From: a virus
Lineage: Duplodnaviria > Heunggongvirae > Uroviricota > Caudoviricetes
Strand: one strand, 5' to 3'
Length of the DNA stretch: 6,501 nt
IMG/VR virus record: IMGVR_UViG_2648501400_000015
Shown here: positions 5 through 6,334 of the stretch, in pieces
Numbering within the stretch: position 1 is the first letter of the stretch
How the letters are laid out: every line of letters starts with the position of its first letter
Notes under the pieces: model-generated
Told to the model about the DNA's origin: nothing
The model's input: the letters and a program-made list of their open reading frames with translations, nothing else
The model's database searches: none
Position numbers and translations under genes: made by a program

Positions 5-238
5 ATGCTGCATCTGTTCAGCGGCAAACCGATCCCCGACAACCGGGAAAACATCACTATTCGTCTGGATGATCACATTCAGTCTGTTCAGGGTAAAGAG
101 AGCTATGAAGATGAGATGTTCAGCATCAGATACTTTAAGAAGGGCTCCGCGCACATCACGTTCAGAAAACCGGAACTGGTTGATCGGCTAAATGACATCA
201 TTGCGAAGCATTATCCGGGGCAACTATCAGCCATCTGA
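5..238 (+). CDS. hypothetical protein, possibly only the C-terminal part (ORF may continue upstream of the window)
   Basis: Open frame 5..238 with stop TGA at 236-238; the ATG at 5-7 is only one codon from the window edge, so the true start is unknown. No motif recognised. A rho-independent terminator hairpin lies 60 nt downstream. Confidence 0.4.
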   Translation: MLHLFSGKPIPDNRENITIRLDDHIQSVQGKESYEDEMFSIRYFKKGSAHITFRKPELVDRLNDIIAKHYPGQLSAI

Positions 239-337: not shown

Positions 338-413
338 TGGTGGCCCCTGCTGGACTTGAACCAGCGACCAAGCGATTATGAGTCGCTCGCTCTCACCACT
401 GAGCTAAAGGGCC
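338..413 (-). tRNA. tRNA-Ile (anticodon CAU, lysidine type, AUA decoder); nearly identical to E. coli ileX/ileY as I recall them, positioned like phage-borne ileZ
   Basis: Minus-strand sequence GGCCCTTTAGCTCAGTGGTGAGAGCGAGCGACTCATAATCGCTTGGTCGCTGGTTCAAGTCCAGCAGGGGCCACCA folds as a cloverleaf: 7-bp acceptor stem, D-arm, anticodon loop CUCAUAA (anticodon CAU), T-arm GGTTCAAGTCC, encoded CCA. A tRNA-Met identity cannot be excluded from the anticodon alone. Confidence 0.85.
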
Positions 414-3163: not shown

Positions 3164-3319
3164 TTACTCCTCAGGTTCGTAAGCTGTGAAGACAGCGACC
3201 TCCGTCTGGCCGGTTCGGATTCGTACCTCGCAGAGGTCTTTCCTCGTTACCAGTGCCGTCACTATGACGGTTAAACAGATGACGATCAGGGCGATTAACA
3301 TCGCCTTTTGCTGCTTCAT
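3164..3319 (-). CDS. hokD: Hok/Gef-family type I toxin (51 aa), sequence as I recall HokD/RelF
   Basis: Translation MKQQKAMLIALIVICLTVIVTALVTRKDLCEVRIRTGQTEVAVFTAYEPEE: single transmembrane helix plus conserved RKDLCEV motif typical of Hok/Gef. SD AAGGAGAAG precedes the ATG at 3319. An in-frame upstream ATG at 3376 would give a 70-codon ORF. Confidence 0.9.
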   Translation of the reverse strand: MKQQKAMLIALIVICLTVIVTALVTRKDLCEVRIRTGQTEVAVFTAYEPEE

Positions 3320-3367
3320 AGCCTGCTTCTCCTTGCCTTTCGGCACGTAAGAGGCTAACCTACGTGT

Positions 3368-3440
3368 GTAGAGCATAGATATGGCCTCAGATTAATGTTA
3401 AGCGTCTTGCCGGACGCGTAATGTTAACTGGGGCTTTTCT
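3368..3440 (+). ncRNA. candidate Sok-like antisense RNA (approximate coordinates)
   Basis: Plus-strand promoter-like element inside the hok leader: TTGCCT (3333-3338), 17-bp spacer, TAACCT (3356-3361). A transcript from about 3368 would be antisense to the upstream ATG/SD region of the hok leader, as Sok is in plasmid R1 hok/sok. The 3' end is not defined. Confidence 0.3.
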
Positions 3441-3495
3441 CTATCTGCCTTTTGGTGTTCATGCCTGAGACAGATAGCCTCAAGCACCCGCAGTC

Positions 3496-3524
3496 ATTCT
3501 ACCCGTTTTAGATTTCTCAGCCAA
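3496..3524 (-). promoter_or_regulatory. predicted hok mRNA promoter
   Basis: Minus strand: -35 TTGGCT (3524..3519), 17-bp spacer, -10 TAGAAT (3501..3496). Predicted start near 3489 gives a 5' end GGGTGCTTGAGGCT..., resembling the hok mRNA 5' end of plasmid R1 as I recall it. Confidence 0.45.
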
Positions 3525-3665
3525 CTTTATGCTCACAACATATACAAATTTCCCGGTTAAAGCTCATCATGTTAGATAGTTTTTGCGTACGCACTATTTT
3601 TTTATGTAAACTGCGCAAAAAAGTTTAGCACCCTAAATTGTTAAGGGAAAATTAAGGAAGTGTTA

Positions 3666-4757
3666 ATGCTTGAGCAAACAGTAAAAAACATCAATTCACG
3701 CTTTGGCTGGCGCAACACCCGTAAGCTTCTTGGTTCATCACTGGGTGTAACGGCCCAAGGATTACCCCTTTTTATTGAACGTGTAAATAGTGTAGTTCAG
3801 CATAATCCCGACCTAAAAGACAGAATCGACGATTTCTGGAAAGGTTTAATTTTTAGCGGGAATCGATTACTTTCTATTTATAGAATCACCGATGAAGACG
3901 TAGCAAAATTACAAACAATTTTCACAAATCAGAAAAAGGACAATAGCCCCTTCTCAGAAAAATACCCAACTCCTTTATCCAGAGAGGAGCTGTTAGTTGC
4001 TGATACTGAGCTGCATTTTGCTGAACTACGTCAAGATATCATTCGTGATAAACAAATTGACACTGCTGTTTTTTTATCCAAAGCGTATTACACTGAAGTG
4101 ATAGAGCTTGACCCAACACATCTTAGCGATGCGGGTATGGAATTACGTGCTAATGGTGGAGAAATAAAATGCAAAACACGCCAAGTCACGCAATGCTTTA
4201 ATACCATCATGCTAATGCCTGCAGAAAAAATATTAATTCTTACGATTGATTTATCTATCCTTCCAAGAAGTGAATCACAGCCTCAACAATACCTTGTGGC
4301 TAAATTTATAAAAAAAGAAGCTGGCGTTATTTTAAACAATCCTCTTGAATTATTTGGTTCAATACAAGATCTTTACGAAAAAGTAGATGGCAGAATTTCT
4401 CATGTATCTTTTATCACCTCAGATGGCAATACAAGTTCTTTAAAACTCAAACCAAGTCAAAAGTGTTTGCGTCAAGATGTTTACCATCATAGTGGAGAGT
4501 CCGCAAGCCCAATATTGACAAAGTTTAAGTTGGGAAAAATTTGGGATTTACCACAAAGTTCTTCACATATTTTATCAGTAGAGTTAATATTACCAGGAAA
4601 AAGGACAATGCTTGATAATCCTAGAATTAGGTTGCATGAAGCAATTGCGAAGAACTGTAACAACATTGATTCGATTATATTTATTGTTGAAAAAATATTG
4701 GATTCTGTTAAGTCCTGTGAAGAGAAAAGAAGAGCGAGATCATCAGGCCATAAATGA
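3666..4757 (+). CDS. hypothetical protein, gene 1 of AT-rich three-gene operon (363 aa)
   Basis: ATG at 3666 preceded by SD AAGGAAG (3654-3660); the ORF track start at 3660 is a GTG placed too close to the SD. No Walker or other motif recognised. Stop TGA overlaps the next start (ATGA). Confidence 0.75.
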   Translation: MLEQTVKNINSRFGWRNTRKLLGSSLGVTAQGLPLFIERVNSVVQHNPDLKDRIDDFWKGLIFSGNRLLSIYRITDEDVAKLQTIFTNQKKDNSPFSEKYPTPLSREELLVADTELHFAELRQDIIRDKQIDTAVFLSKAYYTEVIELDPTHLSDAGMELRANGGEIKCKTRQVTQCFNTIMLMPAEKILILTIDLSILPRSESQPQQYLVAKFIKKEAGVILNNPLELFGSIQDLYEKVDGRISHVSFITSDGNTSSLKLKPSQKCLRQDVYHHSGESASPILTKFKLGKIWDLPQSSSHILSVELILPGKRTMLDNPRIRLHEAIAKNCNNIDSIIFIVEKILDSVKSCEEKRRARSSGHK

Positions 4758-5182
4758 AAAAGAGTATATATCACGACATTATCACGCAAATAGAGCAGGA
4801 TTTTAATGATCCTGTTCGCAGTGTGTGTCGTGATCTTTTTCTTTTTCTGGTTAGTAAAGATGCTAAAAATATCAATCACTTTACATACAAAACCCTTATC
4901 AATGGTTTAACCTATCTAACTGATACGAAAGATGACTATATCCTGCTAATAAAAGCAACTGATTATTTATCTAGCTATAAAGCACATCTATTGGATATGC
5001 ATTTTCAATACATTGATAATTTAACGGAAGAACCAATACCAGTTGAAGATGATCTTATTTCCTATGCTTTAGACACAGGAAGTTTTTACCATCCAGAAAC
5101 TGGCGAATTGGTTGATAATTTTAGCCAGTATCTTTATCCATACTTTACTCCTTCGAGTCTTTTGGAGAGTCTGCATGAGTGA
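4754..5182 (+). CDS. hypothetical protein, gene 2 of operon (142 aa, acidic C-terminal half)
   Basis: ATG 4754-4756 overlaps the gene 1 stop (4755-4757) with no independent strong SD, suggesting translational coupling. No motif recognised. Confidence 0.7.
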   Translation: MKKSIYHDIITQIEQDFNDPVRSVCRDLFLFLVSKDAKNINHFTYKTLINGLTYLTDTKDDYILLIKATDYLSSYKAHLLDMHFQYIDNLTEEPIPVEDDLISYALDTGSFYHPETGELVDNFSQYLYPYFTPSSLLESLHE

Positions 5183-5816
5183 TGTAAACATCTGTACTGC
5201 AGACCTTCAATCATTAATTAGAATGGATCCTGAATTTAGGGGAATGGTTCAAAGAAAATTAGCTGCAGACAAAAATATTTTTGTAAAGCAACTCTATGAA
5301 GATTTAGACGACGCTATTCAGAATTTAGAAAATGACAAACACTTCTATCAAGATGCTAAGTGGGGAGAGGACGAGCTAACAGCGTCGATCAAAAATTTCC
5401 TGAAAGGTAGGTTTTATGATGTTGAACATGATACTCAACATGGCGGTCACGTTGATTTATTAGTTAAACATCAATTCGGAAAATTCGAATGGATCGGTGA
5501 AGCAAAATTATGGAGAGGCCCCAAATCTATTCATAATGGCTGGATTCAGCTAACCGAACGTTACGGCACGGGTACGTCACGTGACGATCATGGAGGAATT
5601 CTAATTTATATAAAGTCTGACAAATCAGCAGTAAAATTCAATGAATGGAAAGAATTTTTCTCTACGACCGTTTCGGACGCAGAAATTGAAGCGGAAGGCT
5701 CTCCCCTCCGCTTTAAGAGTATCACAAAGCATCCAGCAACAGCGCTTCCATATCATGTAAGACACATGGGAGTATCCTTATACCATTACACTGGTAAAAA
5801 AACCGCTGACTCTTAA
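5175..5816 (+). CDS. hypothetical protein with PD-(D/E)xK-like motif, putative nuclease; gene 3 of operon (213 aa)
   Basis: Start chosen at ATG 5175 (MSDVNICTADL...), preceded by SD GGAGAG 5 nt upstream and overlapping the gene 2 stop by 8 nt. Motif GHVDLLV-x14-EWIGEAK (D94 ... E109-A-K111) fits the restriction-endonuclease-like core D...(D/E)xK after hydrophobic strands. Confidence 0.7.
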   Translation: MSDVNICTADLQSLIRMDPEFRGMVQRKLAADKNIFVKQLYEDLDDAIQNLENDKHFYQDAKWGEDELTASIKNFLKGRFYDVEHDTQHGGHVDLLVKHQFGKFEWIGEAKLWRGPKSIHNGWIQLTERYGTGTSRDDHGGILIYIKSDKSAVKFNEWKEFFSTTVSDAEIEAEGSPLRFKSITKHPATALPYHVRHMGVSLYHYTGKKTADS

Positions 5817-6334
5817 CTGGTAATTGCTATATATCCAGTCAAAAAACCTAAGGCTTTTTGCAATCTTTTACGAATTGTTCCATCTGAACATCCTTGTTGC
5901 TTTGCAATAGCACGAAGAGATAAACCAATCACGAAATGAGCAACAATTAACTCATATTCTTGTTGCTTATATCTTTCTAACCTAAGGATACTAATGTCAA
6001 TAATTCGCCCTTCATCATTGCTGCACTGACGACGTGATTTTTTACCATGAGGAACAACATTTTTATATTTATCAGCTATTTCCTGCCAATCAATAGAACT
6101 ATTACCAGCCACAACCCAAGCCCCCCAATCGTCTAAAATCTCACATATATCAACATTACTATCCATCTGTTTTTTATTTTCTATTTTGAAATAACCAAGC
6201 AGCATTCTAGCCATTGTTGTTATTTCTATACTTGTAACTGACTCATAAGCATGAGGAGAAACAATTCTCTCATCACTTAATGCCCAATCACTAAGGTTTG
6301 CTATTTCCAACAATCGTTCTTTAGTTATTCCCAT
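5813..6334 (-). CDS. hypothetical regulator with C-terminal sigma-70 region-4-like HTH (173 aa)
   Basis: ATG at 6334 preceded by SD GGAG with 6-nt spacing; the ORF track start at 6346 is GTG. C-terminal ELIVAHFVIGLSLRAIAKQQGCSDGTIRKRLQKAL matches the region-4/LuxR-type HTH pattern. AT-rich like the operon; convergent with gene 3 and overlapping it at the stop codons. Confidence 0.65.
   Translation of the reverse strand: MGITKERLLEIANLSDWALSDERIVSPHAYESVTSIEITTMARMLLGYFKIENKKQMDSNVDICEILDDWGAWVVAGNSSIDWQEIADKYKNVVPHGKKSRRQCSNDEGRIIDISILRLERYKQQEYELIVAHFVIGLSLRAIAKQQGCSDGTIRKRLQKALGFLTGYIAITS

Follow-up and report, generated by a model that had tools for sequence, protein, structure and literature searches.

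A predicted PD-(D/E)xK nuclease in a three-gene prophage cassette as the candidate effector of phage defence

The window analysed here, a stretch of 6,501 nucleotides (nt) from the viral record IMGVR_UViG_2648501400_000015 of IMG/VR, is a portion of an Escherichia coli lambdoid (Rac-like) prophage. On its plus strand lie three genes, referred to here as genes 1, 2 and 3, all of which RefSeq annotates as hypothetical proteins. Gene 3 (5175–5816, plus strand; 213 amino acids, aa) encodes a protein that, judging from its predicted structure, almost certainly has the PD-(D/E)xK (restriction-endonuclease) fold and is probably an active nuclease. We propose, with a probability of roughly 65%, that the three genes form one translationally coupled cargo operon, most likely for defence against phages or other mobile genetic elements, in which gene 3 provides the effector.

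The initial annotation of this DNA had picked out a PD-(D/E)xK-like peptide in gene 3 with D94, E109 and K111 as the catalytic residues. Translation of the window from the ATG at 5175 reproduces both the peptide and this numbering. The motif HGGHVDLLVKHQFGKFEWIGEAKLW covers residues 89–113 (5439–5513, plus strand) and corresponds to strands β2 and β3. Within it, the range 5448–5507 reads HVDLLVKHQFGKFEWIGEAK (residues 92–111) and holds the three residues, encoded at 5454–5456 (D94), 5499–5501 (E109) and 5505–5507 (K111). The numbering is valid if translation starts at ATG 5175. RefSeq starts the gene at M17 (5223; WP_001380433, 197 aa), and lengths of 197 and 213 aa both occur among database entries of the same protein cluster. 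We prefer ATG 5175 because a GGAGAG Shine-Dalgarno sequence stands 5 nt upstream of it, and because residue 1 of the 213-aa form is the position at which the alignments with homologues and with the profile phrog_9664 begin. The RefSeq start is probably 16 codons too short.

Taken by itself, the pattern is a lead rather than evidence, because it is so common in shuffled gene-3 sequences: the loose form D-x(8,25)-[DE]xK is present in 90% of them and a stricter form with hydrophobic flanks in 21%. What raises the motif above chance is the invariance of its residues across the family together with the predicted fold. A search of 5.8 billion proteins yielded 45 relatives of gene 3. In a 33-sequence alignment reaching down to 27% identity, E65, G91, H92, D94, W106, G108, E109, A110, K111, Q125 and Y130 do not vary. 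When 1.84 billion cluster representatives were searched with a profile, 990 clusters were returned at E ≤ 1e-3. We examined 151 representatives, namely the best 150 of these 990 clusters plus the window protein, with one sequence per 50%-identity cluster. E65, G91, D94, E109, K111, Q125 and Y130 are conserved in 151/151, including 10 fusion proteins. The pair E65-D66 (5367–5372, plus strand) lies in the first core helix, with E65 present in 151/151 and D66 in 139/151 representatives. E65 sits where PD-(D/E)xK active sites usually have a fourth acidic residue, comparable to E77 of BamHI. Further downstream, in the helix after β3, the segment Q125-L-x-x-R129-Y130 (5547–5564, plus strand) contains the invariant Q125 and Y130. 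We presume this motif to be akin to the QxxxY motif of RecB/Cas4-type nucleases, with a spacing that is one residue longer.

An AlphaFold2 model of gene 3, computed with the family alignment as input, was obtained with a mean predicted local distance difference test (pLDDT) score of 91.8 and a predicted template modelling (pTM) score of 0.88. The model consists of a helix (residues 65–78), three strands (82–88, 91–98 and 105–112), a second helix (116–130) and a final strand (139–146), which is the canonical α-β-β-β-α-β core of the restriction-endonuclease fold. The first helix carries E65, the second strand D94, the third strand both E109 and K111, and the helix that follows Q125 and Y130. Structure prediction had been suggested as a check on the proposed motif, and it returned the restriction-endonuclease core rather than an unrelated fold. 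One detail of the earlier description needs correction. It had placed the aspartate at the end of a hydrophobic strand; D94 is indeed on a strand (91–98), near its start and ahead of the hydrophobic residues LLV, which is the canonical position. The closest structural matches of the model are type II enzymes of the BamHI family and McrC; NucS, Cas4 and Bax1 are among the weaker matches.

Gene 3 has no match in Pfam, even at E ≤ 10, and none in NCBIfam. Sequence and profile searches of the PDB gave no genuine match either. The gene-3 profile did retrieve Rab GTPases from the PDB (E ~0.007), and we consider these matches to be chance; they fall in the C-terminal β-α region, outside the motif. 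The identical protein in UniRef carries the name 'Restriction endonuclease', so the idea of a nuclease is already present in at least one automatic annotation. Gene 3 is a new, uncurated family within a well-known superfamily.

The initial annotation also named gene 3 as the likely effector of the cassette, and two lines of evidence favour this assignment. First, about 10 of the best 150 gene-3 representatives are long fusion proteins. Six of these (P0079, P0093, P0097, P0102, P0104 and P0107; 915–1226 aa) combine an N-terminal NACHT nucleoside triphosphatase (NTPase) with HEAT repeats and have the gene-3 domain as their very C-terminal end. The same NACHT-HEAT-nuclease layout is seen in P0105 (855 aa), with a weak NTPase match, and in P0198 an NB-ARC/NACHT module precedes the gene-3 domain. 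The examples with a name belong to the cyanobacteria Oscillatoria and Fischerella. All fusion proteins retain the catalytic residues, and a search of the STAND fusions for gene-1-like and gene-2-like segments found none. The combination of a STAND NTPase, a repeat sensor and a terminal nuclease is a standard architecture of bacterial antiviral proteins that resemble nucleotide-binding leucine-rich repeat receptors. The fusions imply that the gene-3 domain may act as a trigger-activated nuclease effector that depends on oligomerisation. Second, the only match of gene 3 in a defence database is the PADLOC candidate PDC-S54, which covers the catalytic core (E 0.0016); the NB-ARC fusion P0198 matches the same candidate at E 8e-8. 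In addition, gene 3 stands alone among the cassette proteins in having a catalytic-looking constellation of invariant residues. The alignment of gene 1 contains many invariant charged residues too, and these say little because that alignment is far less diverse.

Gene 1 (3666–4757, plus strand) encodes a 363-aa protein with an isoelectric point (pI) of 8.8, which we propose to be a DNA-binding sensor or targeting subunit. Its predicted structure shows an N-terminal helical region followed by a DNA-binding fold of the RdgC/RexA/Iml3-Chl4 type, in which the base and centre domains of RdgC can be recognised. The best Foldseek match is a phage RdgC, and the structural matches comprise RdgC, Iml3, Chl4, 3oh8 and RexA. 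Membership in the RdgC family is not apparent from sequence, as gene 1 has no Pfam match at E ≤ 10, and its profile matches no sequence in the PDB. The label 'RexA-like sensor' is a fold-level analogy drawn from the model. The loop 267–284 (about 4464–4517 of the window) contains the invariant residues C267, L268, D271, Y273, H274, G277, A280 and L284, and it is the only long segment of gene 1 with pLDDT <50. This loop may be a contact element for a partner or for DNA that becomes ordered only in the complex. As a separate observation, gene 1 is split into two open reading frames (ORFs) by a frameshift or stop in three viral contigs where genes 2 and 3 are intact (L019, 4472–5580; L032, 4472–5580; L068, 4443–5506). 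These cases are either sequencing errors or decay of the sensor gene.

Gene 2 (4754–5182, plus strand) codes for an acidic protein of 142 aa (pI 4.6), a proposed adaptor or inhibitor. Its start codon and the stop codon of gene 1 share the sequence ATGA (a 4-nt overlap), and its end overlaps the start of gene 3 by 8 nt. Gene 2 stands directly upstream of gene 3 at every locus examined. No residue of gene 2 is invariant in a diverse alignment, and the protein matches nothing in Pfam or the PDB; it does match phrog_11490, a family of unknown function. A two-gene variant, L075 (5743–7014), is informative with respect to the role of this protein. Here, the gene-2 domain makes up residues 306–420 of a 423-aa protein and is followed directly by gene 3. 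Comparison of the N-terminal part of this protein (~300 aa) with gene 1 by hhalign gave no signal, and genes for DUF2589 and DUF4332 proteins lie upstream. L075 is thus a Rosetta-stone-like fusion in which the gene-2 domain is joined to a different N-terminal module. This fusion suggests that the gene-2 domain and gene 3 together behave as a unit to which various upstream partners can be attached.

The three genes also travel together. Profiles of the three proteins were searched against the six-frame ORFs of 72 loci. The order gene 1–gene 2–gene 3, on one strand and with abutting or overlapping genes, was found in all loci with enough flanking DNA, the exceptions being the two-gene variant L075 and the Vibrio element L081, where a 339-aa protein that the narrow gene-1 profile does not recognise occupies the position of gene 1. 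This synteny persists at gene-3 identities as low as ~30% and extends over about 28 distinct lineages. Among IMG/VR viral contigs we found 59 loci, and a scan of GTDB species representatives gave 3. The exact cassette is present in 14/5,426 complete E. coli genomes, whereas other prophages of E. coli and Salmonella commonly carry a version with ~60% identity.

In E. coli prophages the cassette sits just past the gene for the antiterminator Q and is transcribed towards it. More precisely, it is found between Q and holin in L002–L005, between Q and stx1AB in seven Stx1a-converting phages, and between hok/sok and Q in the window. In Shewanella, it adjoins genes for a serine recombinase and a DUF6538 integrase, in a Photobacterium island it lies beside helix-turn-helix, VspR-like and helicase genes, and on one metagenome contig it adjoins an rve fragment. 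In L081 (PQ189315, 1351–3626), it stands beside the integrase of a 14.8-kb PM2-like (Vinavirales) temperate Vibrio element, which implies that the cassette crosses between the realms of tailed and non-tailed phages. Its GC content is 36.5% in the window, compared to 52% for the phage genes on its left; in four different hosts the values are 34–38% for the cassette and 47–52% for the flanks. With this low GC content and scattered placement, the cassette behaves like horizontally exchanged accessory cargo (a moron) and not like a core phage function.

This moron position, the low GC content, the presence as cargo on mobile elements and the STAND fusions lend contextual support to a role in defence. 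The analysis shows the gene order with its overlaps, the conserved synteny, the predicted folds, the invariant catalytic residues, the STAND fusions and the cargo-like distribution; that gene 3 is a nuclease with DNA as substrate, that gene 1 binds DNA, that gene 2 is an adaptor or inhibitor and that the cassette confers defence are inferences. Several observations weigh against our proposal. Neither gene 1 nor gene 2 has a match in PADLOC-DB v2.0 (models up to 2023), so that the case for defence is built on context. Comparison of gene 1 with lambda RexA by hhalign reveals no relation at the sequence level (probability 0.2%). For gene 2, the proposed role as adaptor or inhibitor derives from its position, its charge and one fusion. 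Finally, no convincing sigma-70 site emerged from a consensus scan of the plus strand between 3490 and 3665, the region that presumably contains the cassette's own promoter. With PADLOC-DB v2.0, the outcome for three divergent cassettes and for the two-gene variant was the same as for the window cassette, and the three-gene architecture corresponds to none of the system models in PADLOC v2, Pfam or NCBIfam. All three proteins match only families of unknown function in PHROGs. A description of the cassette was not found in the literature, including the DefensePredictor paper and its supplements, with subscription literature covered in part; a domain-centric discovery paper and a paper on serine-recombinase markers do not mention it.

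How might such a defence operon work? Gene 3 would be a Mg2+-dependent PD-(D/E)xK DNA endonuclease with an active site formed by E65, D94, E109 and K111, to which Q125 and Y130 would contribute. Cleavage would require a particular oligomeric state, as in BamHI-type enzymes and STAND-fused nucleases. As has been proposed for RexA, the basic gene-1 protein could bind DNA, a phage DNA–protein complex or an intermediate of phage replication or recombination, and it would thereby supply the trigger or the targeting. Gene 2 would connect this protein with the nuclease, which it would probably hold in check until triggered. The trigger would then release or assemble the active nuclease, and phage DNA, host DNA or both would be degraded. 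When the carrier phage itself enters the lytic cycle, the cassette might be switched off, speculatively, by late transcription running antisense through it, because the cassette is convergent with Q. A narrower version of this scheme, which we offer as a tentative and rather doubtful possibility, describes a hitherto undescribed defence system in which a ring- or clamp-forming protein of the RdgC/RexA fold detects DNA intermediates of phage replication or recombination, or free DNA ends, and releases a BamHI-like nuclease through the gene-2 adaptor. Under this version, adaptor and nuclease together would constitute a portable effector module for unrelated sensors. Candidate sensors are the gene-1-type protein and the N-terminal module of L075; the NACHT-HEAT STAND proteins are candidates for pairing with only the nuclease.

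Other functions for the cassette deserve consideration. The same gene order could describe a toxin-antitoxin or addiction module that stabilises the prophage or island, with gene 3 as toxin, gene 2 as antitoxin and gene 1 as DNA-binding regulator. A small acidic protein (pI 4.6) directly upstream of a putative nuclease and translationally coupled to it would fit such a module, the cassette always occurs on mobile elements, and its neighbour in the window, hok/sok, is another post-segregational killer. We nevertheless consider this function unlikely, given that the cyanobacterial STAND fusions do without a gene-2-like segment and that a conserved 363-aa protein with an RdgC-like fold is atypical as a toxin-antitoxin regulator. 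Many toxin-antitoxin systems are defence systems in their own right, so that this explanation overlaps with a defence role rather than excluding it. The location of the cassette in a nin-like region, next to RusA and DUF968/HNH genes, raises a different option, namely an accessory module for recombination or repair during the phage's own replication, in which an RdgC-like modulator and a structure-specific nuclease would act in the manner of RusA, NinB/Orf or Rap. PD-(D/E)xK enzymes include resolvases and phage exonucleases, and RdgC is associated with recombination (PMC11077077). This function is improbable for a cassette that is oriented opposite to the early and late operons of the phage, has a far lower GC content, varies in position among phages (Q/holin, Q/stx and hok/Q), is carried by a non-tailed PM2-like element and by islands outside phages as well, and is rare among similar lambdoid prophages (14/5,426 E. 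coli genomes). Recruitment of the nuclease domain by immune-type STAND NTPases points in the same direction.

The structural matches to BamHI-family type II enzymes and McrC, together with the UniRef name, could also indicate a solitary restriction enzyme, either type II-like or modification-dependent and type IV-like, with genes 1 and 2 as specificity or accessory subunits. The lack of a methyltransferase gene in the cassette would fit a type IV system. At no locus, however, is a cognate methyltransferase or a McrB-like GTPase conserved beside the cassette, the conserved partners resemble no known restriction-modification subunit, and the STAND fusions suggest cleavage that is activated by a trigger rather than constitutive. 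We regard this possibility as just as improbable as a recombination module. Inactive members of the PD-(D/E)xK superfamily exist, and gene 3 could in principle be a catalytically dead protein that binds only DNA or protein, with the motif as a structural relic. Such an explanation is very improbable: E65, D94, E109 and K111 as well as Q125 and Y130 are invariant in 151 clusters that diverge to less than 30% identity, as expected for an active site under selection. The reading that we prefer is a defence operon with an active nuclease as effector.

The cassette is surrounded in the window by typical phage genes. Positions 3400–5900 match E. coli O145 RM9154-C1 at 100% identity and enteropathogenic E. 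coli (EPEC) O127:H6 E2348/69 at 99.9%. To the left of the cassette, the minus strand carries a gene for antiterminator Q (PF06323; 609–1298, ~50% GC), RusA (1295–1654), a DUF968/HNH protein (1667–2716), a small hypothetical gene among these minus-strand phage genes, and the complete hokD toxin gene (PF01848, E 3e-23) with the sok antisense RNA (Rfam RF01794, 117 bits; 3164–3489). The hok/sok locus adjoins the cassette directly in divergent orientation. The 103-nt stretch 3400–3502 is the sole portion of the query that is kept in 4,461/5,426 E. coli genomes. The Rfam sok match stops at 3489 and leaves the intergenic region 3490–3665 (plus strand) between hok/sok and gene 1.

On the other side of the cassette, the minus strand carries a second Q-family gene (PF06530; 5813–6346, 35% GC) that is unrelated to the first. 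Nin-type genes, hok/sok and the cassette all lie between the two Q genes, which suggests that two lambdoid late-control regions meet here in a mosaic joint. This low-GC Q of the PF06530 type may have been acquired along with the cassette, because a PF06530-type Q flanks the cassette in L002–L005 too. In the Stx1 phage L080, the cassette is flanked by a Q gene as well. The stop codons of gene 3 and the convergent Q gene overlap on a common palindromic TTAA (5813–5816), which provides TAA on each strand. This leaves no space for a terminator between the two genes, so that transcription of each enters the other in antisense.

Two further features at the left end of the window are recorded for completeness. 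One is a tRNA gene (338–413, minus strand) that follows Q downstream and has the anticodon CAT. ARAGORN calls it Met, and the equivalent tRNA in E2348/69 is tRNA-Ile in RefSeq; presumably it is the lysidine-modified Ile2. The listed ORFs 240–371 and 356–511 are artefacts of translating this tRNA. The left edge truncates a gene that leaves a C-terminal DUF4942 fragment (5–238, plus strand; E 6e-23, profile positions 117–189/190). In E2348/69, the area matching this fragment contains an ISEc13 insertion and a second tRNA as well.

The gene-3 family comprises 990 clusters at 50% identity without coverage by Pfam, NCBIfam or the PDB. Its placement among the PD-(D/E)xK proteins provides a testable function for hypothetical proteins in pathogenic E. 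coli (EPEC E2348/69, O145, Stx1 phages), Salmonella and Vibrio, among others. The three-gene architecture falls outside the named systems that we tested and pairs a nuclease with a protein of the RdgC/RexA fold. Should a role in defence be borne out, the cassette would illustrate the coupling of a DNA-clamp-like sensor to a nuclease, and it could illuminate what RexA-type proteins sense. To our knowledge, the trigger of the lambda Rex sensor is still unclear; if the clamp-sensor version is correct, the cassette would offer a soluble and biochemically tractable counterpart of that sensor. In Stx1 phages, the location between Q and the stx genes bears on the competition of these prophages with other phages. 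Overall, we see in the cassette a candidate defence system that is well delimited, widespread and amenable to experiments, rather than a conceptual surprise.

Comparison with known systems helps to place the cassette. Gene 3 shares the α-β-β-β-α-β core with BamHI/OkrAI/BstYI/BglII-type enzymes, and also the layout of the active site: an acidic residue on the first helix, an aspartate on β2 and E-x-K/E on β3. The active-site residues of BamHI are E77, D94, E111 and E113. The sequence identity is 8–13%, with no relation at the level of hidden Markov models, and unlike these enzymes, gene 3 has an extra N-terminal region of three helices (residues 8–58). Its obligatory partners are unlike those of any type II restriction-modification system, and the cassette contains no methyltransferase domain, nor is one conserved beside it at any locus.

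PD-(D/E)xK effectors are also part of several multi-gene systems, including Hachiman (HamA), Shedu (SduA), McrBC (McrC), NucC and Can2/Card1. In contrast to these examples, the cassette has no helicase (HamB), no GTPase (McrB), no cyclic-nucleotide sensor and no DUF4263 signature, and the PADLOC models for Hachiman, Shedu, McrBC, NucC and Can2/Card1 match none of its three proteins. PDC-S54 aligns with the catalytic core of gene 3 over positions 295–371; this PADLOC candidate is a single-gene system of 410 positions, of which ~60–75 residues are matched, with a marginal score for the window protein. Avs and bNACHT proteins are related in a different way, as there are NACHT/NB-ARC NTPases with HEAT repeats in which the gene-3 domain forms the terminal part. 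The window cassette, unlike these STAND proteins, contains no NTPase. The gene-3 fusions carry the nuclease at the C-terminus, after the repeats, whereas the characterised Avs proteins have N-terminal effectors. N-terminal Cap4-type domains have been described (PMC12803255).

The lambda RexAB system, which consists of the sensor RexA and the membrane effector RexB, is encoded by a prophage and expressed in the lysogen; the cassette is likewise prophage-encoded. The PADLOC defence models, which should include Rex, give the cassette no match of this kind. No gene for a RexB-type membrane protein is conserved in the cassette, where the partners of gene 1 are an acidic 142-aa protein and a globular PD-(D/E)xK protein. 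RexA, a component with the RdgC/RexA/Iml3-Chl4 fold, binds DNA non-specifically (PMC11077077). Gene 1 is predicted to share this fold. In RexAB the effector is a membrane protein, whereas in the cassette this part would be played by a soluble nuclease together with a small adaptor.

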